From contig JAYWIR010000043.1 of assembly GCA_036172245.1 (NCBI GenBank), forward strand, positions 620,001 through 684,000: a stretch of DNA of 64,000 nucleotides, written 5' to 3'. Source of the stretch: Raillietiella orientalis (Eukaryota). The notes beneath the pieces were generated by a model. The model was given only the letters and a program-made list of their open reading frames with translations, searched no databases and was not told the origin of the DNA. The position numbers were made by a program, and so were the translations under genes. Within the stretch, counting starts at the first letter, position 1, and each line of letters starts with the position of its first letter. Positions 3,001 to 64,000 of this stretch are shown in pieces.

Positions 3001-4527
3001 CAGCGCCATCTTGCAGGAGGAACCCAAACGACACAGTGGCGTCAGTCTCTGTCGGAGTATTGGAACCCGCGGCTCACGGTGCCACGCGTGGAAGCCTTAA
3101 CCACTAAGCCTCCGACGCGGGCTCTGTGGTTTGTGGCTCTTCCTCCCCCTCGGAAGAATGCCATGTGTTTATTCTTTCACAAGTGGAGAAATGGCTCGTT
3201 GATGGCATACAGTGAAGGTTGATGGTGATGGTATCGTAGTAACCTGTTGCATTACCGTTTCGGTTACCAGCAGACATAGGGAAAGGATGGAAAAATTACG
3301 GGAAAGAAAAGAAGAAAGAAAAGGAAGCTTTGAAATCCCATTCAAGTTCATTTCGGGTCGAGTAAAACTCGATGACATTTACGCTGAGAAAGAAGGCGAT
3401 CGGAAACATCGCAAAGTTCACATCTATGCCGCCTCGAATTTCAACTTCCAGCCTTCAGTCTGCTTGCGAGGGCGGCAAAGGCAAAATGACCGTTTCTCAA
3501 GAAGCGAAACTGACCAAGTGCTCAGCTGTCTCTCTTCCAAATCGCCCACATCTTTTACATTTCCATCAAGCATTTCAATTGTGGGTTTGCTGCCTGTAGA
3601 GGATGCCATAACTCAGTTCCTGTGAGGTTTTGAATGCAAAGGAAAAGCGAATTTCTCTTTGTGTGTGTGCTCGGCCTTGGTGACTTCTCGGATCGATGAA
3701 AGAGGTGTTCTCTATGGATGAATAGCATCAGTCACTTTACATAGCTAGGGTTTTCCGGTGGAACCTTGAGCAGCAGCTGCGTTGGTGTTGGCGAAATTCC
3801 TGAAAAGAGTTGCCTATTTTTCATAAGACTCCGTCCCATCTCCCACTTTTATTGCTCTGCCCTGTGGCAAAGCATCTTCTTGCATTTTCGTTTCCCTGCT
3901 ATCGAGATATCTGCCTATTGATTTTGACCCGAGAACGAGAAGAGTCACTTCACGTCACTGCTAGTGGGAAGTCTCAAGCCTCTAAGAAGGCCTTTTAAGA
4001 ACTTTGCTCTTGTTGACCGCTCGAGACTATCTATATGCTGACTGATGAAGAGCTTAAAAAGAACGTGAAGGGATTATGGCGTCCAGCAGCTTTGAGGATG
4101 GATGCAGCCGCGAAGGGAGATACAGATATGAGATGCTCTACGGAGAAATTTCCGTGGATGTAGTTCCGAAGCCATAATTTCAGACTCCAATAACCCACGC
4201 AAACATGTCAAAACATACGAAAGGTTCTTTTATCTGAGGACTCCTCCTAATTTGATGAGCATAGGGAACTCGAAGATCGATTCGGCGGGAATTTACAAAG
4301 ACCATCGTGGTCTGTTTTGAGAAGCAGCATCCTTGCGCTCACTTTCACTTGCATGCGTTGACTCTTCGAGACGGATGTGCTTGGGAAAAGGAGAACGAGC
4401 TGACTCGGCTTGTAAGATAAAATGAAAAAAAAAAAAAAAAAAGTTTCGATGAATCTTCGAGTATCGCAGATGCTAAAGATGCTGAGAGACAGGGATAAGA
4501 CTCAAGGAAAGGGCGCTGTCTTTTCAG

Positions 4528-13500: not shown

Positions 13501-16500
13501 GTGCACGAAAGCACACTTTTCCAAAAAAAAAAGCAAATAACAATGAGCGGATACTAAAAGCAGCATCATTGATCCTCGAAACGTGAAGCTGTCCTTTATT
13601 CTTCTCGCGAATTTTCCAAACGTGCCTTCTACAAATCTCTGCAGCGAATTTCGCAGTCTAGCGCGTGCTTGTTCTTCCGTTCTCGTCCTCCTATTCCAGA
13701 AAAAGTTTTCTACCATCCTAAACTGCACAACCGCGGAACCGACATACTGGTGGGTTCCCTTGACATGGATCTCTGAAAGCAGTAAGGATTCTACTTCCAC
13801 CGTACAGTGGCTCTATAAAGATTCGCTACCACTGTCCTTCGATATGGGGGTGCCGGGTGATCAACACTGGATGATCTTCAACGTCCAAAGCTCAGGATAC
13901 TATAGAGTCAACTACGACAAGAGAAACTGGTTCCTTATATCTGAACAACTCCTTCGCGACCATTCAAAAATTCAAACAGTGGACAGAGCGAAATTGTTAG
14001 ACGATGCGTTTGGGCTGGCAGAGATGTCGCATCTGGATTACAGCATAGCTCTGGACCTGACCAAGTATCTTAGCAACGAAACAGAATATGGTCCACTTTG
14101 TGTCGCTTTCCAAGAGCTGGAAAGCATCCAGACGAGACTTTCCTCTTCCACTGCATCTGAAGACTTTCGGGTTTGCTTCCCCAGAGCGAGGCGAGGTGAA
14201 TCTCATTCCTCTTCAGATGTACCTACTGGGGTTATTGGAAAAATTGTATTCTGGCATCGATTGGTCAATATTTCACGTCCTCGCAGATGAAGGCCATGAA
14301 GATGTTACTCAGGTCTACCGGGCTTTGATAATCGTGGAACAGTCGTGCATGTTAGAGTACGAACCATGTCTGGATTATGCCATGGATGTGTTTCGACGGT
14401 GGATGAGGAATGCCAACGATGAAAGACCATCGTAAGACTAGATCCTGTTCCAGCTTCTCGCACAATTCTGCTTCCAGAAGGATTCATCCCAATCTGAAGC
14501 AAGTGATATACTCAACAGCAGCCCGTTCCGGAACCACCTCGGAATGGCATTTCTTGTGGAAACACTTTCTGTCTTCAAACGATGAAACAGAGAGATACTC
14601 TGTGTTGCAAGCCATGTGCAGTGCGAAAGATGCATGGAAGCTGCAAAGCCTGATCGAAAAGAGTTTGAGCAGCACGTTGGGAATTCGTCGTCAGGATTCC
14701 TCTTCGATTCTGGGGTCCATCGCGAGGAACAGCAACGGAGCTCTGATGATACTGGAGCTCTTGAAATCCAGATGGTCCGACATGATCTCCCAGTAAGTTT
14801 CATCACTCCTCAAGGCTGAGGCGTTTTTGATGCTGAAGTCATCAGCAATCTCGTTTGGACTGAGCATCGCTAGTAGTACACCAAACAAGCAAAAGCAAAG
14901 AATGACAAAGAGCATCATAGTGGAAAAAATTCTCTCTGCTTTCTGCAGTTTGGAATCAGAGGTTCACCTTCAACTTTTCTCGGATTTCAGATGTGCCTCA
15001 CACTTCCTTGGAATTTCGTGCATCACTTTTTCTTGCCTTCTTCGGACCAGCATGACAAATAGCGAGAGTTAGATCTACGCTTCAAGGATACATTTCCTAT
15101 CCGTGCGAGTCTCCATGATAACACATATTTGGGTTATAGGGAAATGGATGCGAAAAACATGGCTTTGGGTACGATAATAATCTGAGTACATAAACTGTAC
15201 AGCAGCAGTCAGAGGTCATCGCGAAGTAGCGTGAATGTTTTCTTCGCGATAAAAAACACTGTATTTCTTGAGTGTATTCAGTGGGAAGCCATAAATGAAA
15301 AGTGGGATTGACGACCGCCATCCATAGCTAAGGAATCGGGAACGAGGGACGAGATCTACCCGATTTCGCTCGAGGATTGATTTCATTAATGGTTCAGAAG
15401 GATATTGGTGAGGGAAAGAATGACCCGAAATTCCAAGCAGCTTCTCTGAAGTTTAGAAAAGCATTTCGGAATGCTGGGAAATCCAAAGATCTCTCAGCAT
15501 CCCGGCTCTTCATCCGATGTTCCCCCGTTCCCGGATAATAGAGTATTCTCGTCGACCATTCTATTTCAATGTAGCATCCAAAGTACCGATCCTTTTTCAT
15601 GCTTTCTGAGCTGCCCAGCCCCCCCCCCCATATCCTTCCAAGTTCCGTGCAGCGCGTCAGCAGTCGAATCTCGAAATGAGTGCTCCGCGAAAGAATGTAT
15701 TACTGGAGTACGTCGTCGTCGTGTATTGATAGCAAACGGAATATCATCATTTACTGATGCTGATTTTCAACCTCGGATGGCTTTCCAATCAGCACAGATG
15801 CCGCCGCGTGAGAGTTGCTGACGATATCTTTTACTATGACGTCGAATTGAACCGCTCGGGATGCGAGGGATGAAGGTGCTCGATCGAGGAGCCCAAGTTC
15901 GAATGGCGGAAACCGCTAACGTCGACATGCTGAACCAATGACTGACTTCCACTGTGGTGGTCACACTATCGGGTCATCGGTGAATTTTCCCCCTCCTTCC
16001 CCAAAACGCGGGATGCAGCCATTGCTCTGTTGGTGTCCTCTCCTTTGTAATTCGTGCCCATCATCCGAATCATCGCGTAATTATTGAGTATGGATTTTTT
16101 TCTGCAGCTGTGGGTGGAGAATTTGTATTTATTTTATTCCTCATTTCAGTTTCGGCCGATCGACGTCTTTCGATAAAATATTTACAGCTCTGGCCGAGCA
16201 GCTGCACACCGAGCACCAGTTGAACGATGTAAGTAGCACACTTGTTTACATGCAGCCGACCTGTGCATGAAATCAGCCTTAATAGCTTTTTCACACGCAA
16301 CGGATGCTGCAATTTATTTTTTCTCCTCCTGACATTAGCTTACCTGCCTCGCGGAGGCCAAACGTGGGGGGGGGAGGGGACTTGATCTTCTTTCCGTCCT
16401 TTCATCTTGCTAGCGTTCGCAAGAGTACGTGCATCAAGTAGAATAATAAAACGGGAACTCGGACGGTAATGGGGAATAATCCACGAATGGTACGGAGGAA

Positions 16501-18044
16501 GGGATCATGCGGTCACCCTCTCCCCCGTAAACAAATGCGGCGGAACCGCTGTGTTCGGGGAGGTGGAATATCGATCCTGGAATGTGTACAGAGTGCCACC
16601 CGAAGAACGCAAAGAATCCGCACAAGTTCGCAGAATGAAACGCAATGTACAAGCGTGAGAGCGGAATGGACACTTTTCCGCAACGGAATCCACTTGTGGA
16701 GATTCAGTTCACGGAGATCAGGCAAGATGGTAACCCGCCTTGCTCTGCTCCAGCGAAATCAATGGGCAGTGACCGGAAAGGGAGGTCGTCTGGACAGCGT
16801 GACCCCCAGAAGAAGAAGAAAAAAGCGATAGAAACATTTTTCACTCCTGACGAAGTGGTGCTTATCCAGCGGCGATGAGGTGCTTGCAAGCATTTCCCTC
16901 CAGACAAACCTTCAGGTGAAACCAGTTCCCTATCACAGTAACTTCCGTGAAGATGCCTCAAGAGCTACTTCAAAACGGACCACCTCAAAGGATCCTCATA
17001 CTTCATAGTTGTGTTGCTTTGGTCCATCTACCTGGGATTCAAACAGAAACTTCATTTTCTCTACTGCAAGTCGTCGTCCACGCTGGAAGCCTCAGTGTGC
17101 TTTCATATTAAGAAATGGCACATTTGTGTTCTGGAAGATTGAAGTTCATCTCCATGGCAGCAGAGGAAAGCAGGGAGACGGTGACGATTCCACATCCATG
17201 TTTTTCCCGAATCCATGAGCGCGTGATTCCATTCACAAAATGAAAAGACGACCACTCAAAGAGATCATGTCAGAAGAATGCAGCATCAGTAATCACTGCG
17301 ATCTCCTTGGTGATCATTGGGGAAGGAGCAAACTAAAAAGATATCCACTGAAATGCTCGAATCACATGTTGAGCTCCGTACCGCCTCTCGGAGACCACCT
17401 TTGTGAATTCCCTTTTTTTTTTTTTTCACTTCTCTCCGGTCCATCTCTAGAGATGAGATGGTGCCCGTAGGTGGCAGGTAGGGACAACAGCAGCAGCGAA
17501 TTGATGATCACCGGTTGACAGTAAATTGCAACGCGAGGAAGAGACAGTCGAGACGAAGGTTCGCGTTCGTAGCGATGGATCCGACCGCAGATCCAACGCA
17601 TTTGATGACGACTGATGATGGGATGCTGATCCGCGGGTTTTGGATCTCGGCCGCTCCTGGAACCCGGGCATCCCGCCTTCGGTTTCCTCTCTGATCTGGG
17701 GACATCTTCGCAGCGCCATCCGCCTTCCCCGGGTCGTTTGGACCCCTTTTCGTATGCAAGTGCTTTCAAAATGGAGCCACCACGATGAACGCGACTTCAC
17801 AACTTCCGTGGCTCTGCAATGCCATAATCACAACAGACGCTTTTTCTTTTTCTTTTTTTCTTTTCAGATCATCAAGTTGAGGGAGGAGGTCTTTGAAAAA
17901 TATGGCTTTCAGTCCAAAGTCTTGGATAGAAGCATCGAACTCGTGCAGCTGAATGTAAAGTGGTTGGAGGAAAGGCACGCAGAAGTGGCTACCTGGCTCG
18001 CTGAGAACAAGGACTTCTACAATAAGGAAAATGCTATCGTTTGA
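4528..18044 (+). CDS. M1-family zinc aminopeptidase (aminopeptidase N-like), 5'-partial, 9 exons visible
   Basis: Exons with phase-compatible GT-AG sites: 4528-4851 (PMSTYLVAF...[34 protein letters not shown] motif), 4931-5114 ([27 protein letters not shown] = HEXXH-18-E), 7174-7330 ([10 protein letters not shown], catalytic Tyr), 10060-10328 ([11 protein letters not shown]), 13700-14170 ([14 protein letters not shown]), 14217-14431, 14478-14792, 16150-16228 ([11 protein letters not shown]), 17868-18044 ([11 protein letters not shown]...WL, stop). The N-terminal exons (ARxAFPCFDEP-type) were not found in the window. Confidence 0.95.
6600..6900 (-). mobile_element. Decayed non-LTR RT fragment (intronic)
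   Basis: [24 protein letters not shown] resembles the R..L...L...G.P...I..I segment that follows the RT KAFD motif; highly degenerate. Confidence 0.35.
11128..11892. repeat. Interleaved inverted repeats A-B-A'-B' in an aminopeptidase intron
   Basis: 11128-11355 is inverted at 11576-11803 with few mismatches; 11404-11484 is inverted at 11811-11892. Confidence 0.9.
12198..12253. repeat. (AT)n microsatellite with duplicated CTTCAAAT flank
   Basis: (AT)n-CTTCAAA-(TA)n-TCTTCAAAT seen directly. Confidence 0.9.
17285..17782. repeat. ~500-bp dispersed repeat, copy 1
   Basis: Near-identical direct copy at 21419-21927, differing by a 12-bp indel, poly-T length and a few substitutions. Confidence 0.92.
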
Positions 18045-18082: not shown

Positions 18083-18395
18083 TGGTTCCTATCTAGTCTA
18101 CACTTGGAAGATTTGAATCCGTGCAACTTTCCTTTCGGGATAATGGCTTCTTTTTTTGAAGGGGGGGGGGGGTTTCGATAATAGAAGGCAGCATGGGTGC
18201 TTCTTTACTGAACGAAAATGAAATGGAGAGGGTCGTGCTTGGCCTGGGGAGCCGCAAGTTCCTGAAACTTCAAAGAAGGCTCTCGCAGAGGGAACTCCGC
18301 AGGTTTCGGGGAAGATTATGCATTTTTTTCGGGAACGTTCCATGGCAGTGACGAAGGGCTTCCGCAGGTCCTTTCGGAAAAGAGGATGCCACCAG

Positions 18396-18601
18396 GGTTT
18401 TGTGTAGAAAGAATAGGTGTATTATGGAGATGATTACTATGATGAAAGGTAGAATGAAGTGTAATGAGAAGAATCGGTTGAGGGTGGGATTAGACACGAA
18501 GAAGTTCCCCCAAAGGAATGAAATGATGTGTTGGCCAATGAGGGGGATGGTGGAGAATAGGTTAGTAATGACTGTGGCAGCTCAGAAAGATATTTGTCCC
18601 A
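18396..18601 (-). pseudogene. CYTB: NUMT: nuclear copy of a mitochondrial cytochrome b fragment
   Basis: With TGA=Trp and ATA=Met the minus strand reads [69 protein letters not shown], the cd1/cd2-helix D region of cytochrome b with both helix-D heme histidines. It ends abruptly on both sides in nuclear DNA. Confidence 0.95.
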
Positions 18602-21418: not shown

Positions 21419-21927
21419 ATCAGTGATCACTGCGATCTCCTTGGTGATCATTGGGGAAGGAGCAAACTAAAAAGATATCCACTGAAATGCTCGAATCACA
21501 TGTTGAGCTCCGTGCCGCCTCTCGGAGACCACCTTTGTGAATTCCCTTTTTTTTTTTTTTCACTTCTCTCCGGTCCATCTCTAGAGATGAGATGGTGCCC
21601 GTAGGTGGCAGGTTTGGCAGGATGTAGGGACAACAGCAGCAGCGAATTGATGATCACCGGTTGACAGTAAATTGCAACGCGAGGAAGAGACAGTCGAGAC
21701 GAAGGTTCGCGTTCGTAGCGATGGATCCGACCGCAGATCCAACGCATTTGATGACGACTGATGATGGGATGCTGATCCGCGGGTTTTGGATCTCGGCCGC
21801 TCCTGGAACCCGGGCATCCCGCCTTCGGTTTCCTCTCTGATCTGAGGACATCTTCGCAGCGCCATCCGCCTTCCCCGGGTCGTTTGGACCCCTTTTCGTA
21901 TGCAAGTGCTTTCAAATCGAGCCACCA
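21419..21927. repeat. ~500-bp dispersed repeat, copy 2
   Basis: Direct repeat of 17285-17782. Confidence 0.92.
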
Positions 21928-24900
21928 GCTGTCGAGTGCGATGAATCTGAAGTGCTTCCACGGGTTCTCATCAAAGGGCCTTTGCTTTGGAAGGAATTTC
22001 CGAATCATGGTCGTCCCTTCTGTTTTCCCGCTTGTCGGATGGGCATCCTCTTCAAAGGACCGTTCTCTCCGTTGCCCAGGGCGCTCGAACAGGAACCTGA
22101 AGGAAAAACCCTGTAATTTTTAGAATTTTTTTTTTTTTTTTTTTCTCTTCTCCAGAAACTCGAGAATTTCCCGAAAAGAGGAAACATGGACGTCCTGTCT
22201 TCGCACTTTCAGTTCATAAGCAAAATCCATTCCTCCCCACCGGCCAAAGCACTTTCGTGGATCCACGGGACCGCATGCACGCAAATTTGCTGCACAAAAT
22301 CAATACAAAAAAACAGTTCGACTTTCGAGGATCCTCTCGTCCCGTATGAACGCAGACTCCGGGAGTCCTTACGAGAATTTCACGGGAAAAAGGCCCCTCG
22401 GAAGCATCGAATGGAGGACTCCTGATCATTTGTGAGGAAGCACGGTGGAAAGCTCAAGAAGATGCTCAGGTTTCCTCCGCACTTCCGGCATTCCACGCTC
22501 TATAAGCGAGTGAATCATGATGGGTGAGAAATTGGATGATAGAATGTGCCGATCAAGTCTCGGAGGTGGAACGAAAGAGTGATTCAGTTAGCATGGCCAA
22601 ACAAGGCGAAATATGAATACCGAGTTTTCACTTTCCGTAGAAAGTCCGATCTCTCTTGTTCGGGGATTGAGTTAGCAGAAGGGAATTCGATTCCGAACGG
22701 GAAGAAAGCCGTCCTCTGGAGGCGAATGGAGAAGTGTCGAAGCTCCTGTATTCATTTCGGTCAGGAACTTTATCTTCGGCGCAAAGGGGGTCTCTGCTCC
22801 TTCCCACGGAATATGGGAGCAGAGATCCCATCGGCGTGTTCCATGTTTAATTCCAGGCACCCTATTTTCCACGTGCCGCCTTTCTGCAGCCTCGAAAATT
22901 TCCACCGAATGCTCCGCTTCGACCGCTCATTCGAACGCGCTTAACGTCGTCATACACAAATTCACGTGCCTTATTCCACAGTATTTACGACCGAGGTCGT
23001 TCTTCATCTTTACCCCACAGAGCAGCTCGCGCAAGTTTGGCATCTTCCGATGGTTTGTCATCTCCCGATTGAGATGGCATTCCCAGATAAAAATCCGAAT
23101 GGCAACTTTTGCACGAGCGACGTGGTAATTAGGAAGACGGGAGTCCTAATTTCCTGAGGGTTTCCTTCGGTTGAAGAATGCAAATAGCGCATGCTCTTTC
23201 TTGCTGAGAGTTCCATCCACACAGGTAGATTCTTGGCCTTGTGTGTGACTCTTTGATGTGGTTTACTAACCAATGCGTTCCTCATGCTGCTTTCTTCATT
23301 CATTCACTGATTCTCGATTGGGTAAGTTGCATCACTTATTTCGCTACTGCCTGCTCCCTGCGTGACGTGTCACTGAATGTGTAAGGCATGGTGGGTTTTA
23401 ACGTTTGCTTTCTCGAAGATAATAAATAGTGGGGAATCGAGACGAGGAAACGGTCCATGAAAGCTGGACCGGCGCCGCGAGTGAAGTTCCGTTTGCCGAA
23501 TTGTGAATCTTGGAGTGAAAAGCTGTGATCTTAATTTAAGTGATCTTTGTGTGCCTTGCGGAGAGAACTTTGAATAAAACTCTGAACAATGAATGAAACT
23601 TTGAATCACTTCAAACAGTTATGGAAGCTCCTCCGTTCACTCATCTCTGTGTGTGAAGAGATGAGGTCCTTCAACCGTAAACGGTGTGTGCCTGCAATAG
23701 AAAATCACATCGTGGGTATTCATTTGATTAAGGATTTGAAGCAATCATTCCAGGAATGTGAAGCGATTTCCCAGTTGTTTCTCGTTTGCTCAGCTGCCGA
23801 GTCCACAGAAAACCAATCGTTCGAGCGTGCATTTTTCTGCTTAGCTGCTTCACCAAGTGAGCGAAGGATCAGCCTCTCCTTATCTGGAATCTGTTTATTC
23901 GAGGGCGACAGGCAGGACTGTGAACGAGAACCATGGCGGATCCTTCGTTTCCTAGAGATCATCCCTAGCTTCAGGACATGATTGGTTGCAATTGGGAATT
24001 GGCGTGTCAACCTATAAAAAAATTTTTGCCTCGTTCCGTGTCAGCCTTGTGCTTCGAAACCGCTCGCCCTGCCTCCCATGGTTTCCTCTTCCTCACCTCA
24101 CTTTGCTTCGGGAAGACACTTTTCCGGACCGTGGCTTTTCCTCCTCCTTTCCTGGACGAGCGTTTCCCATTCTCTTTCCGAATGCCGTCCTCTCGTTGTT
24201 CCACAACGTGACCCCAGGAGCCGAAAGGCGCGTTGCATTCAGTCTGTCATTGCATTTGAGGCATTTCTCGACAGTTTCATTCCGGGAAAATGAGCCCTTT
24301 TGGTTCCCATGCTGCCAACAACTGTTCTCCTGAAGCATACGCCAATCCTTTGCTACACTTTCTCAAGTTGAACCGGATGATGCAATCGAAGGCAAGTTGG
24401 CCAACTTGTCCATCATCTCGACAAACACTACAGGTTGAAACGCCGCACTTTTCCCGCAATAGCCAAGTGAATGTACATCACTTTGATAAGAATTATGATG
24501 TTTACATGTACGGAAAATTAATACCACCCTGCTTTTTGGGAATCTGAAATTGCTTTTCTGCAGAGCGGCTGGAAATCAAATTAAGATGAGACTAATCATC
24601 GGATGTTTTCCTGATCTCGTCAACCTTTCTCAATTAAGCTCCCAGTTAGCAGGTTGTGCGTTTGCGGCCGGTTAGGATGCGCGTTGCTTAGAAACCGCTG
24701 CCTTGAAACGTGCCCTGATAAAGCGCCTACCTAGAAATTGCCGGAGTCATTCAGTCTAAGGTTCAGTGAAATCAGAGCATCAGTAAGGACCACGAACTTG
24801 CAAAAAGGTAATTCACAATGAACCACCCTATGTGCTACGAGATAAAGGATTGTTCACGTCGCCCAGGTTACGAAAGACTGTCTCTAATTCTTATGAGCTC

Positions 24901-50260: not shown

Positions 50261-52922
50261 ACCGATGGGTTGGGCAGATCCTACAAATGTCCACAGAAAT
50301 GTTATTTTCTTTCAGGCGAGATTACATAGAGCGCAGATGTGCAAAGCAGGTCGTGGCTTGGATGCGTCAGCAGCGAAAAACAAAGTTTTCAACCCATGTG
50401 GAAAGAACTTCTGGGGAAAATCCCCAATTCTTAGGATTCACAGGTACAACCCAAATGCTCATCGATTCACGGGCTGCAGCCACTTCGCTTCCAAAATGTT
50501 TCGCCCATGCTGAGCGTGTCTCATATGAAGGAAACGAAATGTTGGCAGCATAGGGTCTCCTACACACTGTTAACCTATTGTGGTGTCCGCATCATTTGCA
50601 AAGCTAAGAGCCTACGATAGAGAAGAGTCTATTCAGCGGCATCCTTAACAGCCTGCTGCCGCTGCGCTGCCGTCAAGATGGGAGTCGCAGACGAATTTGG
50701 CGGCAGCATCGAGGAGTGCAGGAAGACGTTCCAAAGAGTGGCATCCCGTCAAGAGGTCGGTTCATGGAATTTTGGAACTGATAAGCTGCCGGGATCGGAT
50801 ACTATCCAACGGCAGTCGATCCAGCGGGAACGACTGAGATCTAAATTAGAAAGCTTCATTCATTGGGTCTCAGCAGTGTCTTCGAAGACCCCGCTTGTAT
50901 CATACTGGTTTGCATGGTTAAGGGCAGCGATAGCATCACTTCAGATCCTACATCAAGGGGCGTGGCTGCGATGTTGCTGCCCGTTTCATTTTTTAAAGAA
51001 TAATTACGGAAAATTCCTGTAGATTTTCGTCGTTTTTTTTTGTTACGAATTGTGCGCAGGATTTTTCCGAAGCTGTTGGGCAAGCAATCACGAACAGAAA
51101 ACAAATCAATGCAAGAATCTACTTCATCTTACATAGAGGCAACGAGGCGTGTTTTCAAGGATTCTAATGGTTGCGAAAGTCAGTTCACATACCCATGCAA
51201 ATTCGTTTCTTGGATGCAGGTCCTCTGCAGGTAACGAGACGAAGCCCACATTGGCAACGCTAATGCGAGAACGACCAAAGTTGCCACTGCCTTTCTCTAT
51301 GCTGAAAATTTCAAACAGCAAGGCCACTTGTGATGGAAGAGAAAGATTTCCGAGGATAATGCAGCGTAGTTGGTCGCCCCACGCAGCGTTGGCCTATTTT
51401 CTCATTCCGGAGCATTCCCAGCTGGCATTTGGAACAACTCCCGGACTACTCTAGGGCGACGTGGGTACCCCCTTCGACCCCTCCCCTTCCCATTTGCATT
51501 GGTTGGAACGATTCACCCATCGGGCTCTGGGAGACCTTAGGATCCTGTGCTTCCCTGCACGAAGATTGCAAGATCGAATCATGCAACGAGCCTCCATCCA
51601 CAATCATACCCCTTTCGATCCCTATTTGCATTTGTGGTCGCATAGTTTGCTCGCCTTTCACCGTGCCCGGGACATCAGTTTTGAAAAAAAAAAAGGAGAA
51701 AAAAGGAAAAACAGCCGTGCATTTTTTGCCCAACTACATAGACCCTTGCCCTTTGCCCAACTAAAAGAGCAGGCGAACGCGAGCACGTAAACCTGCATGG
51801 CGGAAGTTTTTTTTTTTTTTTTTTTTTTTGGCCCTCCGAAACATATGTGGCGTTACACGTCGGTAAATTTACACGGACACGCACACGGCTCTTGGCTCGA
51901 GGATTTCGACAAATGAGAGAATTGCATAGGAACACTCTTTGCAGAATGCATTCCGTGCGTGGGCGTGCTAACCCCACGTTTGCTTCCGAAGCACAACTAT
52001 CTTATTATTTCCGCAAAGGGAAACGCCCGAGTGATTGGAATCGACCCAACGCAGCGCGAGGCGAAGAGGAAGGAATCACCAGAAATCATACCTCGTCTTC
52101 CTGCGTTCACGGAAGCTGCAAGGTGAAGAGCTACAAAGTATGCACACCAGCGCCAACTTTTCATCGCGAAAAATTTCACAGTTTCCGAATCATTTCATCC
52201 CGAAGACTGAAGTCAGGGGTGACCCGAAGTTGCTGCTGCGGCCGTTCCTTTCGGATCCTTGCGAGGCCAATCGATTTGCCACCACGCAGGGCGCATGCAA
52301 GAAAACACGTGAAAGTACGCAACCTTCCCACTTTATTAGCCTCAAGATCCTCAAGACTATCACGTTGACAGCATCTCTTCAACCGTAGCCATGTGGTACT
52401 GGTGAAAATCTCCCGGAATTTCGGAAACATCTGGGAAAACAAAATGCACGATTGTGCAATGCAAGAGGATCCCATTCGTACACCGCCCGCGCGACCCCGC
52501 TTCAGGCTGGCGCGAGGGACCTTTAGCCATTAACCAAACGAAATGCTATCGTCCACTACATCATTCCATAATAAAACGTGGTTATCTGATGCAAATGGCT
52601 GACCGTCCACGGCTAAGAAGGTAATGCAGGTTTGCTGAAGGTATGAAGGGGGGCACGTTTGAAACACAGATACCGCAGGAATAACCTGGGTAACATTTAT
52701 TCCGTTCAAATAGCCGCAGTAGAAAATGAACAAAAGTCCTGATACGACTGTAAGGAAAGGACCCACGAACCCCACACACCTATTTGGGAAGGCATTTAAA
52801 ATCGAATCGTGCGCGACATGGAGGTGTTTTAACGTTTCCCATGTCAAACCCTACGACGAAACACTGAAAACAGACGATTTCTTACCGAGTCCCTGACCCA
52901 TAAAAATAGGCAATGATCACAG

Positions 52923-54873
52923 TCAAGCATCAACACCTTTAAGAGAGAACGAATGCGCTCTTTGGCTTTCAACGTCATTCAACAAACCTGCTGGCCATGG
53001 TGCAGCATGCAATGCATTCAGTTCATTTTGGCTGAATGCAAACACATGGGTCACTCCCATCTTGGGTTTAACACCGTGGAATCTCAATTTCCATAATGTG
53101 GGAGACTGTCTAAAATGTGCCGATGTAACATTTTGCAGAGTTATCACCAATACCTTTCAAGCTGTGTGATAAGTGCTGCTGTTTTGGTATCAAAGCGAAA
53201 CTGTATGAGTTGATTTGGCATACACTTCTCAGTCACTTGCTGCAGTGCACTCTTGCAAAAATCAAACAGCAAAAGATCTGACACACGTAAATATCGCTGA
53301 CATAAAGTTGCGACTTCTAATACAGCATGCAGCTGATACAAGCATAAAAGCTTTGAGTGAAGATTCTGCTGATCGCATCTCTTCTTGAGAGACTGTAATT
53401 GCTGGGTGCTCAGCAAAGGTTTTGACACTAGGATCCATTGTCAAAAGAAGAAAAAAACACATACGCACAACCTGTCAGCAATTCCACATAATCTCGAAAC
53501 AGTTTGTCGATTCCTATCTCGGCTAGCAATCGGAGAGGTAGGTTACCTTCCAAGTACTCTTGATGCAAATTAACACCATTTTGATATGCCTCAAGAAGCA
53601 GTTTGGCCAACTGGTTGCTACTTTCATGAATCTGCAGCCAAAATGAGTTACTCAAATCTTGGGCATTAAATTAATTACCCAAGGTCGATGGCGATGTTCT
53701 TGCACTTCTTTAAACAATAATTGGAAACAAGCTACCAGATCAGAATGAGAACAGCAATCTGCAAATAACATGACAATGTTTCCCAGGATCTTTCAGAAAA
53801 CCTTTGAGAATGTTCCAAAGAGAATCTGTAAGATCTAGTTTGCGATTAGCCCGAAGTTGCAATGCGTCCCCTTCTATTTCCATGTAAGGTGGAGAGACAG
53901 ACAATATTTTGTGTATTTCGGGAACTTGCGCTGAACCATGTTGAAGAGGCCACGACATTTGCTCCCCATCAATAGTGTCCAATATCATCTCCACAATGAG
54001 CAATTCCTTGTGATAACTTGCCAAGCAGCTGCTACTCAAACTTGGATTCACCCCAGCAATCTAATTTGAAATCAAAACTGTGATGAAAAACTCATACTTG
54101 CCACATGGCAGTGAGCATGCATAGGAGGAAGTTCTAACACTTTTGAACATGGCAACCAATGAAAATGAACACTTAGGAAGTCCGATTTTGTATTGGGATG
54201 GTTAAACACGTCAAAACGGGCTTCTGTCTCTACATTTGTCTGCTTGTAACTGAATAGAATAAATTTCTTTATTCCTCTTACGATTTCGGAACAACCACAT
54301 AAGTTTTTCAAATCTGCGAGGGAGGGCAATGAGCTGCATCTGTTAAGCTTCCATATGGCACCTTGAAAGATCAATGTGTTGCTGACATGAGTACCAATCA
54401 TCAATGTATGACGTGTGTCCTCTCCATCACAGATTGCCCACATTTCCCTTTTTTCACCTTTCTTACTCTTCTCCGACAATGTTATTCTAGTGCTTCATAC
54501 AAAGACTAGTTTCTGTTTTTAAGTACCTTGCAAGTGAGAGAGTGAGAGGTTGCATGGAAGAAACCATTTCAGTTTCTTCCACAGATATGAACCTATTTGG
54601 AAATGTGTGCAGCACACGATCTTCTGGATCCGGTAATGGTGACCCAGTTATATCAAGATGATCGACTTTGGAATCGGCATTTTCCCGGAATTTTTCGGAA
54701 AGGCACAAATCATCAATCAGGTAATCAACACCAGAGGTATCAACTGCATTTGTGGTAAGTTCATCTTTGGTTCGTTCTTCAGCAGACAGCAAGAGAAATC
54801 CATTATCTGGCTGGACACCAAAAATGGAAAGGAAAGGCCAATCACGAACAAACTGTTCCTTGACATTGCCCAT
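52923..54873 (-). CDS. ZWILCH: Protein zwilch homolog (RZZ kinetochore complex), multi-exon
   Basis: Exons separated by ~40-50 nt introns encode Zwilch-type motifs: MWAICDG, HW..VLELPP..A, RKLDLTDSLWNILK, DLVACFQLLF...RPW-IHESSNQLAKLL, PLRLLAEIGIDKLFRDY, LYQLHAVLE and PTLWKL. ATG at 54873, stop at 52923. Confidence 0.88.
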
Positions 54874-54922
54874 CTTATCTGAAAAAACAGTTCACCCAGA
54901 ACGCTAATCAGTCTCTGTTATT

Positions 54923-54928
54923 TTTATT
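54923..54928 (-). promoter_or_regulatory. Polyadenylation signal after BCAS2
   Basis: AATAAA on the minus strand 9 nt after the BCAS2 stop and ~40 nt before the TTTTTTCAG acceptor preceding the Zwilch ATG. Confidence 0.6.
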
Positions 54929-54937
54929 ATTCCCAGA

Positions 54938-55743
54938 TCATAGTCCCCTCTTTTGTTTGGCACACTGGATTTCATTTTCCAGTCGTAGCAAAGCCATCTC
55001 AATTTCATAATTTTTAGATACCAGTCCCACCCAATTCTGCTCTAACTGCCTCAACTGCTCTCCAGCCTCTGTTTGGATGCTCTTTCTCTCCCAGTTCAGC
55101 TCTTGGATTTTTTTTCTACCATACATTATTAATGTGGCAACAGTAAAATGCTAAATGTCCTCACTTCACTAGCTGCAATTGCTTCTGAGCACTAAGTAAC
55201 ATCTGCATAAGCACTTCATTGAACATTTTCCAACATTCACCACCATACTCTAACATGAGTTCCAAATTACATAGTCTGCAAGGAATCAGATGCTTGAATA
55301 GCAGATATTTTGCTGACCTTGTAACTTGGTGCTCCAGTTGAGCCATTGAATTTTCCACACATTCATTCCAAGCAGATACATCTGTCATTTTACCAGCAGG
55401 AGGAGGAGGCAACTCGTAGCGTTTCATGCTCAACATTTCCATAGGCTGGCGTGCTAACAGACGTTCAAATTCAGTTCGAATAATATCTGTCTAAAGAAAA
55501 CGCTTAAGCACAAATCTCTTTTGAAGTAAAAACCTCAAAGGCATGTAGTGTTAAGGGTGGCAAATGTTCTAAGTAGTTCTTGGTAGGACGGTAACGTTTT
55601 GTTTCTTCTTCCACCATAGCCAATGCCTACCATAATTTTGAAAGAAGAATTGTGAAAAGCGTACTCACCGCCTCTCGAACACCAGGTTCATCATAACCCT
55701 GGTCGATATATGGTAAGGCATCTACAAGCACGTCAGCAGTCAT
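54938..55743 (-). CDS. BCAS2: Pre-mRNA-splicing factor SPF27 (Prp19 complex)
   Basis: Five exons (55669-55743, 55534-55626, 55318-55490, 55165-55275, 54938-55115) give [44 protein letters not shown]...[15 protein letters not shown]...NSMAQLEHQ...[16 protein letters not shown]. Introns are 42-49 nt. Confidence 0.97.
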
Positions 55744-55905
55744 TGCTGAAGTAGGGAGAAAAAAACTACAGCTACTTAATGTATACATAATAGAACTTTG
55801 ACCATGATTATGGGTCTCTGGGATCTGGAGCTCACCAGAATACCCTCCCCAACATTTCTCAAGACATAATCAGTTGTTTTCTTTAGAATACATTCCAGAA
55901 AGTAG

Positions 55906-58900
55906 TTAGGCATACAAATTATTCCTCGCTTTTTCTAAAAGTTCTTTGGAAATCTTAGAGAAATCAGGATAAATGTGGAGAGTCTTCTGACAGATATCAA
56001 TAGCATCTGTATAGCGCTTTGCCTTCAGTAAGCTGTGAGCAAATCTGTACCCTGCTCTCAGAAGTGCAAACGGTAACAAATTAGTTTTAAAATACCAAGA
56101 GCTGCCCGAGGTTTCTTGTTACACCTCCAGGCTGTTTCATAATGATTCGCAGCTTCCTTATAACATTGTTCTTTCTCCTTGATATAACCCAGGTATTCAT
56201 GGGCCAAACAACTGGATTTGTTATAATGTACTATTCTCTGTAACAGGCAGTATTTCAGGAAACATACATTAATGCAATACACACCTGTAATTGATCAGAA
56301 GCAATATCATATTTGCCAGCCTGAATATAAATATCTGCCAAAAGTAGCCAACAGCATTCAAGTTCTTCCCGCTCTTGTAGTGTCCAGCGCTGCTTGGCAA
56401 CTCTCTTCAATAAGTTTTTTCCTTTTTGCAACTGGCCTAAAGTGAGGTGAGCAACAGCAGATAACCAAACAACTTCTATTTTCTCTTGTGCACTGCCACC
56501 CAACTTTGAAAGCAACTGGAGTGCTTGTTCTGCTCCAGTTTTTTGCTTAGTGGTGAGGAGTGCCAATGAAGACAAAGTAGTCACAAGTAAATTTTTTCCA
56601 TCCCAGGCTGCCAACAGTGCAAGCAATTTATTGGTCAGCATATGAGCTGCTTCTTGTTCTTCATTCTGAGAATCAAATTGCTCAGAAGTACCGAGGGTTA
56701 ACTCGAGTGCTTTTCCACCCAAAAGATGACAGTCAAGGTTGAGACAGATACGAATCATTTGAATGACTGATAACAATTTCCACTGGTCATCTTTGTAAGC
56801 AGCATTCAACAACTGAAGTGCTTGATAGGTATTTCCCTGATAACTGCAAGCCATAGCATCTTTCACTTTGCTAGCTTACAATTCACATAGAGCAGAACAA
56901 TAACTCCAGCCTGCATACTGATGAGATCGAACACACAAGGATCGTGCTCGCACCAGAAAGGGCTCAGCTTCTTCTAATCTTCCCAAGCATAACAAAGTCT
57001 TCACCAACTTCTCCAAAACTCCAAAGTGTTGAGGATTTCTAGCTGCTCAGAACTGTTCAAATTCTCAACTAGCCTTACACACCTAACACTTGTTCCTGCT
57101 GCAATACTGCCGTTTCCAGGTCTATTCTTAGAAGAGCTATTTCAGCTAGCAGATGAAAAGCACCCACATTCTCTGAATTCATCTGTAGAAGCTGCATACA
57201 GCAATCTTGACACTGATCCAAATCACCTAGTTCCAGGTACAACTCAGCTACTTGCATCATTTGTTTGCACGCTGACTGGCTACAAACTAGAGCCTCAGCA
57301 AGGCAAACATGGGCCTGAGATACATTTTTCTGAGAACGATAAATGCGAGCCATCTCACATAGCAGTCTGGAAGATAAAAAGTAGAAAGATGTAAAACAGA
57401 CTGATATCTCTCACTCTGCAATTCTCCAGTTTTCTATACCAGCACTAGAAGTAGCGTCCTCTGTGTGCTGAAGCTGTTCCCTTGTATTCAACAAGCTCCT
57501 CACGTCTTTTGCCAACTGTAAATTGTCATGAGCTTTTTTCATATCAAGCTGCTTTATATTTATCTAAAATATATCATAAAAGAAAACAAAGTTCATAGCT
57601 GTAAGAAAAACAGTGCCTGAGATTTAATATAGAAAATGTCAAGAATGGGTGAAAACACACCTGCACTGCTAGCAAATAGAGTTTCAATTTGAGAACTAGA
57701 CTAGAATTTTCTTGTCCATCATTCACTTGCCTTAATCCCTGATGAATGCTCAGTTGTGCTTGTTCCAATTGCTGCATCTTTAATTGAAGTTCTGAAAGAT
57801 GAATGCTATGTAAGAAGCAGTCAGATAAGTCTTGAACTGATTTCAACAATCTCATTACCTAATCTGCGAATCTGGACATTTTTCCCAAGCAGTTTTGTAA
57901 TGTTGAATGGCTGCAGAGAACTGGTATGTTTCCACTAAAGCATTTCCTAGACGTAAGATTAACTCGAGATTTTTAGGATCCAACAACGAAGCTTTCTCAT
58001 AAAAATCTATAGCTTTCCATGGTTCACTAACTGCCATATAAGCATCTCCCAAAAGCATGTAGTTGGTAGCTGATGGTGCATGTTGGGCAATGTCTCTATA
58101 ATGCAAATAGAGCTTTCCCAAGATTCAAGGCATATTTACTGATAACAAGCAATGAAGCCTGGTGTATCTTGAAGGTAGTCAAGATAGATTTGTGCTATCT
58201 GCTTCTGTGCTACCCAGAAAACAGGCTGGTCTTCTTTAATTAAATGCAATAGCTCCAAAGAGTGTTGAATATTCTGCTGGGCCAATTCCAATTCAGCTTT
58301 TATCAGCAGCAAACGAGGATGAGTTTGCTGGTTCTAGAGAGAACAGTGTACAACACTTCCAGGCAGTAGCTTACGTGAAGCTGCTTTTGCGCCTGATCTA
58401 TGAACAAAGTGGCTTCATCCAAATGTTTCTGCTTGAGTTTAATTTCCGCTAAGGATATCAATGCCTCCAAAAGATCTCTTCCAGTAAGTTTGTCATCCTC
58501 AATTGCCTACTGCAATAGATGCGTTCTTATTTGCTAACCAACATACATTTGATAATTCAATGGCTTTGTTTAAGAAATGGACTGCATCTCCCAACTGATT
58601 TCTTTGTTGCAGCATTTTACCATTCAAAAGATGGAAACGGGACTGGTTCTGAATCTATGAGAAGCATGTGAAGACCTGCTTCAAGTTTATAAGCAAGTAC
58701 CTTCAAATCAGAACTAAGTGCTGCTTCCAAAGACTGACTAGCCTGATCTGTGTTTTCATTTTGAAGGTAAATTTGGCACAATAAGAGATGAGCCTGTACA
58801 TGGCAAGGATCTAAAGTACATTCTAATTTTTTGCATCTACCAATAAATTTACCAATTTCCTCCAGAAGTTGCACAAGTATGGAAGTAGCTTCTTGTGTTC

Positions 58901-61900
58901 TATCTTGGAACATCATTGCTTGGGCAAGAAGATACAGTCCTCTAGGCATTTTGCTGCATACAGAAACCAAGCGTTCCAATAAGATTTGACACAAACTCAG
59001 GATACGTAATACAGATGTAATGGGTGACTATTGTGTTGTGATGATGCCACTTGTTTTTCATTTATTATTTCATCTAACCTCTTGAACCAATTTCAAGTGC
59101 TCTTCCACTAACTCTATTATAAGAGTTCCATTGATAGCAATCAGATAATCAACACTAAAAATATGTTTTCTTAGACATTCATCGTGCCGATCTACAATTT
59201 CCTGCAAAGTATCTACAGAGACCGATAACAAACCATTTATTTCCAGAAAATTAACAAACCTAGGACAATATGAAGAGGATCTTCCTGCCTAATGGCCAAT
59301 AGAGACTTCAGTGAAAGAAACTCTGGCATAATTTCCACAGTGTTATCAAGTGAAGCCAATAAATCCAGATGATGGATTGTGCTATTCCAATCCCCTTGAA
59401 GCAAAAAACAACGGGCACAACCTGTAATTTGAACAGGACAAAAGCAATGAATGTAATGAAAGCAATGAAGTTAGATCACCTAGCAGAGCAAAAATGCATG
59501 TCCCATCTACTTGAATTGCTTTTCTAAAAAATTGAATAGCTTCTGCTGGAGAATTGGATATTAATTGATGGTGAGCTAATTCACTTAGAACTACAGGATC
59601 TCTTGGAGCTATTTCAGCTGCATATTCTACGAATTGCATACTATGCTGAAGAAGTCTAGCATCCTGACTGTTCTGTGGGCCAATAAAAAATCATGTCAAA
59701 TAGCGCTTACCATTTGTCGAAGAGCACAAGCAGTTTGCAAGAAGATTTGTGCATTGTGTGGTTCTTCACTCTTTAATGCCACCAACAGATCATTTAATTC
59801 ATGATTCAAAAACTCCTCTTCGATACCACCATGATAAACATGAGCTAGTAGCTGAAGACGCTTGCTTTCAATGAAATAATTTGGCAAACACACATCCAGA
59901 CACAAAGCAACCTCCCAGTCTCTCAGTGATAAACAGACATGAATCTGTTCAAGTAAAGCAAATCCTCTTGGAAAATGATGAATGGAAAACTTCTCAGATG
60001 CTTTTTTCGCTTTGTCCAATTCCTTCTTCAAAATACATGCATGAATCTTTCCTACATGGGCCAGCAAAGAATCTGGTTGCTCCCTACAAAAATCATCAAA
60101 ATAAAAAAATAAAAAAAAATTCACGATTGACTAACTAACCTAAGGGAAATCTCAAAATGAGCAATAGCAGCATCAAAGGCCATAGGAAGGCTAAGCCATC
60201 CTAACAACCAATGGATTCCTTCGTTGTTGCCCCCCAGCTGTATACTCCTCTCCACATAATCATGAGACTTATCTTTCCGATCCATAAGCCAAAGGAACAT
60301 GGCAGCGTAGTAGTATGCCTATACCAAACAAATGAACTTCTTCCATTCAGCATGCATCCTTCATATTTATATTATTGTGACTACAAATAGCTATAATAAT
60401 ATGACTTTCTGTTGTGACCAGAAACTGTTCTGTTTCCTTGCACTTTAAACAATGTTTAGCATTAAATTGTGAGTAATTTCAAGAGTAAATTTCATTAGAA
60501 AACAGACTACAGATCAGATAAATAAACAGTGCTAAGAAAAAGTGTTTGCTAAAAATAAGATTCTGAAGACTATCAATCTCAATGAAATGTAAAAATACTC
60601 AAACATCAAAAGACATAGGATGACTTCAACTGCTTGTAAAAAACAGAAACAAAGCAAAATACTGTATCGCATAGTATTCCATTTATCTGTATGTTTTGTT
60701 CCCATTGCAGAGTATACACAAAAGCAAAAAAGCAGTACATATACACCAAACTGAAATAAAACAGCTGAAATGTTACCCTTCATATCAGTATTATAAACAA
60801 GAACTATATAGAATGAAAAATTGCTTTGAAAATAAAGACAACACTAAAATAGGAGAAAATCCAACAAAAACGTGTTTAAATTTGATCAGTTATCTCAATT
60901 CCCAGATTCAAGTATAGTTTTAACTATAAACTCAGATACCTGTGCATTTGCCTGTCGTCTCTTTTCTTTTAATTGCATTTGAAGAAAAGCAGCTACTTCT
61001 TGATTTCCAGAGTGCAATGTTTTGTGAGCAAACAGTAGTATCAAACAGGATGTTAAACCAACATTTGCATCATTCTAGAACAAAACTGCACTTTACAAAT
61101 GTTCCTCAACTGCAAAATGCTTTGAGTACAGATTACATTGTGCAACTTTTGATAATATAAAAGTATACATTAATTTAGAAAAATGTGCTCCAATCCACAG
61201 CTGTGCTCTCTATAGTATCACTAATTAACAATATTATCATTAATTTTGCAAATTCCACTGGAACAAAAGAACTTTCAAAACAGCTAGCTGATCTACATCA
61301 AAATAAATATCAGCAATTAGAGGAAAAAATTACAAAAACAATTTTTTTTCTCCATTCTCTGTAAAATTCAATTCATTGGGATAATCAGCAATTAATTATT
61401 GCAGGAGCAATAAGATAGTCTATAAACTTTACTATAATGCTTAACTTTACCATAGAATTACATTGAAAACCTGAAATTCAATTTCTGCGTATTTTGGAAT
61501 GGACTTGCTATTTGATTTGCTTCCAGCATATATATGACACAAAGTATGCATCTTTCTAATTACCTTTTGCAACTCTTTTGAAATATGAGAAAATGACTCC
61601 TAGTTTATTGTCAAGTATTTTCACCATAAATAAATCAAACTATTAATGGATAACCAAGATACATGTAAACTACAAAATCATTATCATCATTGTCCGAAAT
61701 TTCCTCAAGGCCTAAATGAAACCCACTAAATTCAGTAAGTTTGTTTTTTGACAGAAATGTGGAAAAATTATTTTCACTTATATTAGGGAGCCAGGGATTA
61801 CCATCAAAAGATCACTCTCCTTTTTCCCATCTTCTATCTTCCCTTGAAACAGCAGTGACAAGGCATACAAATTTCGGAACACGGCATTGCCTGGAAACAA

Positions 61901-62242
61901 CTTCAGTCCTTTCATAGAAGCACCTTGCATTTGGCAAAAGTATTTGTAAATGCAATAATAGCATATTTCGTGCTGAAAATGAACACACTTTTAAAACACT
62001 AATAACTTTACATCTAAATATGGCAAAACATGCATTGAAATTTGATACAGAGAAGAGTATGATATCAACAGACAGATAAGATTTGATTGAATTTCATTCA
62101 AATGTTTGCGTCATGAAGTGACCGCACGGTGCCTATACGGTAGTATTGCTTCCAAAACATATTAACACACTATGTTTACCAAAAAAACTTTCTTTGGGGC
62201 AATACTCACCACTAATTGGGTATCCGTTTGAAATTCTGCCAT
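55906..62242 (-). CDS. TTC21B: Tetratricopeptide repeat protein 21B / IFT139 (IFT-A complex), multi-exon
   Basis: Exon 62210-62242 (MAEFQTDTQLV), 61802-61972 (ICYYCIYKYF...GNAVFRNLYALSLLFQGK), 60940-61074, then AYYYAAMFLWLMDRKDK, many TPR exons (LLGDAYMAVSEPWKAIDFYEKA; CWLLLADIYIQAGKYDIA; NKSSCLAHEYLGYIKEKEQCYKEAA) and the C-terminus GYRFAHSLLKAKRYTDAIDIC...KELLEKAR, matching TTC21 termini. Confidence 0.93.
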
Positions 62243-62423
62243 TGCTAAATATTTAGAAACAGCAGTTCACATGACAAGTGCATAAATATGACACGGCTTT
62301 CATGGAAATTCATGATTAAAATATACATTTCCATTGCAGACATGGCTTTCTAAAGATGAAAACATCACAACTCCTATAAACATAACAAACGCAAAACATT
62401 TTCGAAAATCAGTTTATACTCAC

Positions 62424-62750
62424 CGATATCAGTGACTCTGATGATTAAAGTTGGGCGTTTCGTAAAAACGGCACACCTAGAACTAAACAGGAGAAATTAT
62501 CTTTTGGGAAAAACATAAACACTCTTCTTTCATAGATCCTTCTTTTTCGCAGCTTCAGCCGCACTCGCGCATCCAAATGTATTTCGAAAACGACCCGACG
62601 GTGTGACATCGGAAAACCGAGGGCACGATTAAGTTAATGACCGTCTTGTAATTACTTTTTGCTTAATACGGAAATAATGAAGAATCCCTCCGTCACTCGA
62701 GGTTCGAGTGAGATGAACATTAAGCATATGGTTTTGACAGGGAAAGGCCA
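62424..62750 (-). promoter_or_regulatory. Probable promoter and non-coding leader exon of TTC21B (or of the whole cluster)
   Basis: Consensus donor G|GTGAGT at 62424/62423, acceptor TTTAG at 62245 just before the ATG, and a local return of CpG dinucleotides at ~62.45-62.8 kb. The outer boundary is approximate. Confidence 0.45.
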
Positions 62751-64000
62751 TCCGTGAGTGCCCAGGTCACTATGAGGCCAACGTCGAAAGACTCGATTTT
62801 AAAGTGCACACAAAGAAACTTCCATGAAACTTCACATTATTTCCAATGTAAAAAAAGGGCAGAGGACCGATTCAGCAAAAAAAAAAGGAATGGTTGCAAG
62901 CGGCCACATGCGGGAAGAATCGTGGCTAAAGGGCCTTGGAAGGAGGGAAAACTCCTCATTTAGCTTGAAACTTGGTATCGAAACGAAATTTTGCTGGGAA
63001 GAAAACAAAAGCTATACCATAGTCCCTTTCGGTTTCAGATGTTACTCGAATAAAGAAAAGTCTCCAATAGAACCTGTGGAGCCAACAGACTTGAGTGCCC
63101 CATAAGGGCGCCGAGTCGTCATCCCCAGAGGGCTGGCAGTTCCACTTCCTGAAGATCCAAGAGCCAACGTTTGCAAAAGGTCTTTTGTGTGTAAACCACG
63201 GCACACAGAACTCAAACATGCAACGAATCATCCCAAGTTACAGATGATGATTCACCATTTTGTATTTCATGGTCCTGACTATGCTCATTACTATGTTACT
63301 CGACGCTATAATGCTATTTATTAGATGATATTGAACTCTACAGAGGTGCTCTTTCGAGGGTTTCCTATAATGTGAGAAAATCAAGTGAATCATCCACTGA
63401 TTTGTAATCAAAGAAGTCTTGATTAATAGTTACTCTGTTCTCCAGAAGCAAGAATTATTCAACGATCAACTGGGAGGTCTGAATTAAAGGCTTCTAATTT
63501 CAACTCAACAATAATCCTTGGAAATTCCAGAAATTGATCTCCAAACATTGATTAATGATCGCTATTTAGTAGCGAACTTCAATGAGCTTGAATGCTTTTG
63601 CTCTGTGACTGTATTCACTAGAGGGAAAAATGCAGATTTTTATTATAAGCTATAGTACAATTTCCCAAGATATGACTAATGAAATTATGGAAAATACAAT
63701 CAAGTAATGAATAATTAGAGTATTTTGGGTGAAAGAATTTTCTGTGTGTGAAAATTAAGACATGTCCTCCCTAGAGTTCCAATGGAATTTAAGATTTTCC
63801 ACCAGAAGACAAGGCAGGGAATCAGCCTGCTAAAAAAGAAGGCAGTGAGGAATCCACTCCTGAGACTCGTTGGTTCTCTGATATAAGCCTCCATCCAGTT
63901 GTCGAGGTGATGGCTTGCTTCATTCTTCCCATGATGGCGTTGTGTCGGTCTTGATGATAGGATGAGTGCCTCGTTCAGTGGTCCAAAATGTGAGACAGGG

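Follow-up and report, generated by a model that had tools for sequence, protein, structure and literature searches.

A candidate spliced-leader operon junction between BCAS2 and Zwilch in a compact gene cluster of Raillietiella orientalis

In a stretch of 64,000 nucleotides (nt) from Raillietiella orientalis (assembly GCA_036172245.1, contig JAYWIR010000043.1, positions 620,001 to 684,000; hereafter the window), the functionally unrelated genes TTC21, BCAS2 and Zwilch lie head-to-tail in tandem on the minus strand, and the junction between the last two looks like that of an operon resolved by spliced-leader (SL) trans-splicing. Our preferred reading, held tentatively, is that the cluster comprises two transcription units, TTC21 alone and BCAS2 together with Zwilch, in a crustacean-like arthropod with SL trans-splicing. 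The broader proposition that BCAS2 and Zwilch, possibly with TTC21, form a polycistronic unit resolved in this way in an arthropod stands just short of an even chance. Nematodes, tunicates, flatworms, chaetognaths and a few other groups possess SL-resolved operons, for which several independent origins are assumed. Genes and spacers follow one another on the minus strand in this order:

55906..62242, minus strand: TTC21/IFT139 gene, ATG 62242-62240, TAA 55908-55906, 20 exons, 19 introns, 1321 amino acids (aa)
55744..55905, minus strand: TTC21-BCAS2 spacer, 162 nt, containing the donor at 55835 and the acceptor ending at 55746
54938..55743, minus strand: BCAS2/SPF27 gene, ATG 55743-55741, TGA 54940-54938, 5 exons, 4 introns, 209 aa
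54874..54937, minus strand: BCAS2-Zwilch spacer, 64 nt
52923..54873, minus strand: Zwilch gene, ATG 54873-54871, TGA 52925-52923, 7 exons, 6 introns, 563 aa

The coordinates of the three genes and the gaps of 162 and 64 nt had been given correctly, as read on the minus strand, in an earlier note on this DNA, and the three acceptor strings that it cited do end at 62245, 55746 and 54879. Exon structures are those of a curated gene model, in which the frames are open from ATG to stop in all three genes; CpG and signal counts for the cluster refer to the span 52,923-62,242 (9,320 nt). Two signals lie at the BCAS2-Zwilch junction:

54923..54928, minus strand: BCAS2 polyadenylation (poly(A)) signal AATAAA, which begins 10 nt past the stop codon
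54879..54890, minus strand: CTGTTTTTTCAG, orphan acceptor with 9/10 pyrimidines that ends 5 nt short of the Zwilch ATG, candidate spliced-leader acceptor

AATAAA occurs six times in the cluster, giving P ~0.019 for one starting within 30 nt of a stop codon, and 44 nt separate the end of the BCAS2 signal from the AG of the Zwilch acceptor. The 64-nt gap contains three GT dinucleotides, at distances of 24, 17 and 10 nt from this acceptor. No cis intron fits the gap, because the longest conceivable one would measure 24 nt and the shortest real intron of the cluster measures 36 nt (TTC21, 56879-56844, minus strand, GTAAGC...TTGCAG). In all, 25 of the 29 cluster introns are 36-58 nt long, including those of BCAS2 (42, 43, 42 and 49 nt) and Zwilch (40-47 nt), and the remaining four span 97, 237, 621 and 727 nt. 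A 66-nt alternative to the shortest intron was rejected, as eight of eight homologue alignments favoured 36 nt; at this length the TTC21 intron at 56844-56879 is near the lower size limit of spliceosomal introns. A motif scan of the 64-nt gap found no TATA or initiator (Inr) match, and only 2 CpGs occur over the 200-300 nt that precede the Zwilch ATG. Judged on these sequence features, the junction resembles that of an SL-type operon.

A different account of the same junction is that the cluster consists of three tightly packed genes with their own promoters and no polycistronic precursor, Zwilch transcription starting in the last exon or 3' untranslated region (UTR) of BCAS2 and the Zwilch acceptor being either unused or leader-spliced from a short outron of its own. 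We consider this somewhat unlikely. The Zwilch promoter would fall in CpG-poor BCAS2 coding sequence (0 CpGs in 55,400-55,001 and 2 in 55,000-54,901), the gap contains no core-promoter motif, and a start past the BCAS2 poly(A) site would leave an unspliced 5' UTR of at most ~40 nt. Separate promoters would find support in a cluster of 6 CpGs at 54,700-54,601, within Zwilch exon 1, and in the 5' layout of the other two genes described below. The notion that the two downstream 'acceptors' are instead TCAG initiators accompanied by a TATA box was tried and rejected: it would imply 5' UTRs of 4-7 nt, and neither gap contains TATA[AT]A or TCA[GT]T[CT].

The sites preceding the start codons differ in their pyrimidine content, with 9/10 pyrimidines before the AG at BCAS2 and Zwilch and 6/10 at TTC21. 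At least 9/10 pyrimidines precede 188 of the 8473 AGs in the whole window, and an acceptor of this quality, with its exon starting 0-7 nt upstream of an ATG, is found at 42 of 2403 ATGs (1.75%). Against this background, the finding that both downstream genes (2/2) have such an acceptor is unlikely to reflect chance, and the rarity of the pattern also speaks against separate promoters. An acceptor position weight matrix (PWM) built from the cluster introns discriminated weakly and is little informative, because pyrimidine tracts are weak at the acceptors inside the genes, of which only 3 of 29 reach 9/10. Its scores were 6.8 for BCAS2, 4.0 for Zwilch and ~0 for TTC21, values equalled or beaten by 2.4%, 10.7% and 36.5% of AGs, respectively (n = 4263). 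Of the acceptors that the earlier note placed ahead of every ATG, that of TTC21 is weak.

Between TTC21 and BCAS2 the arrangement is another one, which appears unlike an SL-type operon junction:

55746..55835, minus strand: candidate 90-nt intron, CTG/GTGAGC ... TTTTTTTCTCCCTACTTCAG/CA-ATG, proposed from donor and acceptor scores; if used, it would supply the BCAS2 5' exon in cis

The donor CTG/GTGAGC at 55835 scores 8.6, which places it in the top 1% of GTs and above 27 of 29 true donors in a leave-one-out comparison; it lies 90 nt from the BCAS2 acceptor, the best acceptor of the region, which ends 2 nt before the ATG. Because so strong a donor sits 90 nt upstream, the BCAS2 acceptor is not unpaired. 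A hexamer scan of the 162-nt gap found neither AATAAA nor ATTAAA, the nearest poly(A) variant being an AATAAT at 55923-55918 within the coding end of TTC21, and no TATA or Inr match was found in this gap. The hallmark on which the operon proposal had been built, a poly(A) signal followed by an unpaired acceptor, is therefore present between BCAS2 and Zwilch (AATAAA, no fitting donor) and missing between TTC21 and BCAS2 (donor at 55835, no canonical signal); the operon reading is consistent with the former junction and weakened at the latter.

These differences bear directly on a full three-gene operon, in which a promoter at ~62.5 kilobases (kb) would produce a TTC21-BCAS2-Zwilch precursor, a leader would be joined to the RNA at 55745 and at 54878, and polyadenylation of the preceding message would in each case fall just before the next acceptor. 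Acceptors with 9/10 pyrimidines located 2-5 nt before both downstream ATGs, and the absence of TATA and Inr matches from both gaps, are what such an operon would show. In read-through RNA, however, the donor at 55835 would be expected to capture the BCAS2 acceptor in cis, an expectation that derives from outron experiments in C. elegans, and TTC21 is without AATAAA or ATTAAA. BCAS2 belongs to the Prp19 complex and Zwilch to the RZZ kinetochore complex, both being required in proliferating cells, and IFT139 is cilium-specific; a cilium-specific gene heading two proliferation genes would be functionally odd. We regard the three-gene operon as distinctly unlikely.

That the TTC21-BCAS2 spacer contains a good donor-acceptor pair and no canonical poly(A) signal would also suit a dicistronic TTC21-BCAS2 mRNA from which the 90-nt spacer intron has been removed, or a leader exon (ending at 62424 or 55836) that is shared in cis and spliced onto BCAS2 or Zwilch. 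Dicistronic mRNAs are known in Drosophila. Here, however, BCAS2 would require internal initiation after an open reading frame (ORF) of 1321 codons, and a shared leader would reach the Zwilch acceptor through an intron of 7.5 kb or 0.96 kb that skips whole genes, in a cluster where nearly all introns are tiny (25/29 at 36-58 nt). No sequence feature specifically calls for either arrangement, and we hold both to be very improbable; the shared leader exon, which had been put forward as the alternative to trans-splicing, finds nothing specific in its favour.

The CpG landscape gives a second line of evidence, both on the number of promoters and on their positions, and three features are drawn from it and from the 5' end of TTC21:

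62450..62750, minus strand: CpG-rich promoter-like island, 19 CpGs, observed/expected ratio (o/e) 1.4, the sole such island adjoining the cluster, upstream of TTC21
62245..62423, minus strand: putative TTC21 5' UTR intron, 179 nt, donor TCG/GTGAGT at 62423, weak acceptor TTTAG 2 nt before the ATG
55400..55790, minus strand: CpG-rich patch at the BCAS2 5' end, spanning the initial ~340 nt of the gene in otherwise CpG-depleted surroundings

CpG o/e is 0.34 in the cluster, against 0.87 in its flank at 40-52 kb, and an aminopeptidase gene elsewhere in the window gives 0.83. The depleted block runs continuously from 62,250 to ~52,950, with o/e returning to ~1 right past the Zwilch stop, and 20 CpGs are located 300-600 nt upstream of the TTC21 ATG. 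One continuous block with a single island at its 5' end, and no more than 1-2 CpGs within 200 nt of the BCAS2 and Zwilch ATGs on their upstream side, would be in keeping with a three-gene operon. At finer scale, the 12 CpG-richest of 888 sliding 200-nt windows all fall in 55,790-55,391 (8 of them) or in 54,810-54,581, within Zwilch exon 1. The BCAS2 coding sequence (CDS) contains 11, 1 and 0 CpGs in successive 300-nt bins, arginine is encoded by CGN at 7 of 8 early codons versus 1 of 4 later ones, and introns 1-2 have one CpG each and introns 3-4 none. Transcription starts generally stay unmethylated, and the patch hints at an unmethylated 5' end of BCAS2 and so at a separate promoter. This speaks for individual promoters and against a three-gene operon. 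The single promoter at ~62.5 kb that the earlier note envisaged for all three genes is thus in agreement with one CpG-depleted block and one upstream island, and is undermined by the donor at 55835, the missing TTC21 poly(A) signal and the BCAS2 CpG patch.

The depletion itself has a parallel. In crustaceans, housekeeping gene bodies are methylated and CpG-poor and repeats are hypomethylated, according to the part of PMC6172769 available to us, and the CpG depletion of the cluster matches this pattern. TTC21 is itself strongly depleted, like the crustacean housekeeping genes treated in that part of the source (PMC6172769), a point in favour of its belonging to a three-gene operon.

The 5' end of TTC21 has the same layout as that of BCAS2, namely a donor (at 62423, score 7.6, top 2% of GTs), an interval (179 nt) and AG/CAATG. 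A non-coding first exon, an intron and AG/CAATG are a common layout in arthropods, which would favour separate promoters for these two genes. Both fit exactly the model of ordinary tandem arthropod genes with a 5' UTR intron ending just before the ATG (donors at 62423 and 55835), and Zwilch differs from it in having no possible donor within its 64-nt gap. Loose matches to the RFX X-box number 69 in the window, against 49 expected; the one closest to the TTC21 promoter lies at 62757-62770 with 2 mismatches, and the scan carries no information on that promoter.

Taking these observations together, we prefer two transcription units. In the first, TTC21/IFT139 would be driven from the CpG-rich region at ~62.45-62.75 kb and would probably begin with a short non-coding exon followed by the 179-nt 5' UTR intron. 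In the second, BCAS2 transcription would begin within or just upstream of the 162-nt spacer, giving a short non-coding exon that ends at 55836, a 90-nt intron and an acceptor 2 nt before the ATG. Polymerase would then continue past the BCAS2 AATAAA into Zwilch, and the Zwilch message would be freed by 3'-end cleavage of BCAS2 coupled to SL addition at the orphan acceptor at 54879, so that the leader would provide the Zwilch mRNA with its cap and nearly its whole 5' UTR. The need for both BCAS2 and Zwilch in proliferating cells, next to a cilium-specific IFT139, speaks for this grouping. Gene identities, spacing, the positions and rarity of the signals and the CpG landscape are observed; where transcription starts, whether it reads through, the addition of a leader and the use of the donor at 55835 are all inferred from genomic sequence.

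Gene names were upheld by Pfam matches in a scan of 13 ORF pieces from the cluster, five of them from Zwilch. TTC21 matched ARM_TT21_C (E 4.9e-22); this family and ARM_TT21_5th were above their cut-offs, and matches to ARM_TT21_2nd and ARM_TT21_4th fell below theirs. The TTC21 model aligned colinearly with a mollusc TTC21B (P0001) over residues 53-1319, and a homologue search with a TTC21 exon gave no match above 41% identity. Two BCAS2 exons matched PF05700, with E-values of 4.8e-17 and 5.7e-16, and the protein was 70.9% identical to amphipod SPF27 (P0213) over 199 columns. For Zwilch, PF09817 was matched on exon 5 only, at 31.7 bits (cut-off 25), and the other four of its five ORF pieces gave no PF09817 match even at E up to 10. 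Two structures of human zwilch, chains 3if8_B and 7qpg_B, were also matched by exon 5, with E between 2e-5 and 4e-5; the match spans residues 386-439 (of 591) and is colinear with the Zwilch model. Exon 1 has no recognisable homologue: a search of 1.84 billion representatives returned four matches, all to long repetitive proteins, and a lenient Pfam scan of it was silent.

A search with a BCAS2 exon, for which the best 120 of 631 matches were examined, found the closest matches in crustaceans at 81-86% identity. Within this set, 86% was reached by a Logan protein and by a record labelled as a contaminant of an isopod assembly, followed by krill (84%) and by amphipod and barnacle (81%); none of these 120 reached 100% or was a same-species BCAS2 protein with an N-terminal extension that would expose the 5' UTR. 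Among BCAS2 loci from metagenomes and metatranscriptomes, one intron-less, cDNA-like contig (L010) with 70% aa identity begins with 31 nt that correspond, with 2 mismatches, to the end of the calanoid leader CopepodSL and finish 15 nt before the ATG (L010:1-48). BCAS2 is therefore a target of leader splicing in at least one crustacean, and a leader-spliced BCAS2 mRNA in a copepod is also what a three-gene operon would lead one to expect.

Calanoid copepods (PMC4664967) and the amphipod Parhyale (PMC5111886) have documented SL trans-splicing. Their lineages are probably related to the present one, and the position of the L010 leader close to the ATG parallels that of the acceptor ahead of the ATG here. 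The two studies, however, treat leader addition and not operons, and neither leader gene is present in our window. Operons were unreported in copepods or amphipods as of 2021, as stated in the accessible text of PMC7986045, which would favour separate promoters; in the literature on crustacean operons and leader splicing, we found no report of operons later than that article.

Operons of Ciona intestinalis (Satou et al. 2006, PMC1488885), together with a minor SL1-type class in C. elegans, resemble the cluster in joining unrelated same-strand genes with little or no intercistronic DNA. As in BCAS2-Zwilch, only tens of bases separate the upstream gene's poly(A) signal from an acceptor that immediately precedes the next ATG, and there is no space for a promoter or a cis donor (PMC1488885). 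The Ciona operons differ in that polyadenylation takes place at the acceptor AG itself and the leader was demonstrated by full-length cDNAs, whereas here the arrangement is known from genomic sequence in an arthropod-like lineage. In the chaetognath Paraspadella gotoi, the working definition of an operon required genes on one strand, under 250 bp between them and a leader on one or more of them, a distance rule that encompasses both of our gaps, and operon genes were housekeeping or germline-biased (PMC12460157, as far as its available text goes). By the same excerpted source, Paraspadella differs in having its leader observed and in methylating transposons and not gene bodies, whereas in the present DNA CpG depletion affects the genes and spares the repeats.

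Several observations weigh against a BCAS2-Zwilch operon or against its separation from TTC21. The PWM built from introns ranks the Zwilch acceptor no higher than the top 10.7% of AGs, and the evidence for the predicted Zwilch start codon consists of ORF structure and colinear length. No SL RNA gene was found in the window, with 0 Rfam matches at the gathering score and 0 matches to leader-plus-donor patterns of the Parhyale or copepod type. Zwilch CDS bins, with 8, 5, 6, 8, 6 and 4 CpGs, show no 5' gradient. In 20 metagenomic BCAS2 loci, most of them short or from unrelated animals, the gene adjoined neither Zwilch nor TTC21 (0/20; tblastn, E<=1e-3), and the lack of conserved linkage among these loci also favours separate promoters. 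The donor at 55835 could be a chance site: the 9,320-nt cluster holds four other unused donors scoring at least 7.5 (five counting 55835), which by our own arithmetic gives a ~5-6% chance of an unused strong donor landing suitably. Conserved arginine codons under selection, and not hypomethylation, could account for the CpG patch of BCAS2, and at coarse scale the CpG-depleted block with its single island is equally compatible with one three-gene unit.

Beyond the Zwilch stop, one further feature marks the likely limit of the cluster:

52696..52701, minus strand: first AATAAA beyond Zwilch, 222 nt from its stop codon, where the cluster probably ends

An acceptor-like sequence, CTGTTTTCAG, lies at 52841-52873 (minus strand), 59 nt past the Zwilch stop, with 8/10 pyrimidines and its AG ending at 52864. 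An ATG 21 nt beyond it opens MGNVK, like Zwilch, and continues for 20 codons only; no downstream gene was found. The search for a fourth gene was negative, none of eight cluster-flanking ORFs (0/8) having a Pfam family. At 51807-51832 (minus strand), GC-rich DNA of normal CpG content is interrupted by a run of ~23 A, perhaps the tail left by a retroposed element downstream of the cluster.

Among 150 further ORFs of at least 95 aa, Pfam matches were obtained in four belonging to an M1 aminopeptidase and in one cytochrome-b fragment. The M1 aminopeptidase/ERAP1-like gene (4499-14793, plus strand) lies 40 kb from the cluster, and its kilobase introns and CpG content (o/e 0.83) contrast with the tiny introns and CpG depletion seen there. 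The cytochrome-b fragment (18273-18581, minus strand; PF00033, E 5.5e-21) is isolated among repeats and is probably a nuclear copy of mitochondrial DNA; a homologue search with it yielded only cytochrome b of bacterial type, at ~66% identity across 59% of the query. Near-identical ORF translations ~4 kb apart at 17365-17827 and 21499-22119 (minus strand) suggest a dispersed repeat, and the same peptide encoded on both strands at 11.2-11.7 kb (11121-11801) suggests an inverted repeat.

Taken by itself the locus is no proof, but it offers a clean candidate in which one junction is operon-like and the other ordinary. If the reading of BCAS2-Zwilch is true, SL-type operons would occur in Arthropoda, a phylum in which no operon has been described. 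Confirmation would mean an independent origin of operons in the best-studied animal phylum and would provide a system that combines operons with gene-body methylation, and it would change the annotation of crustacean genomes.

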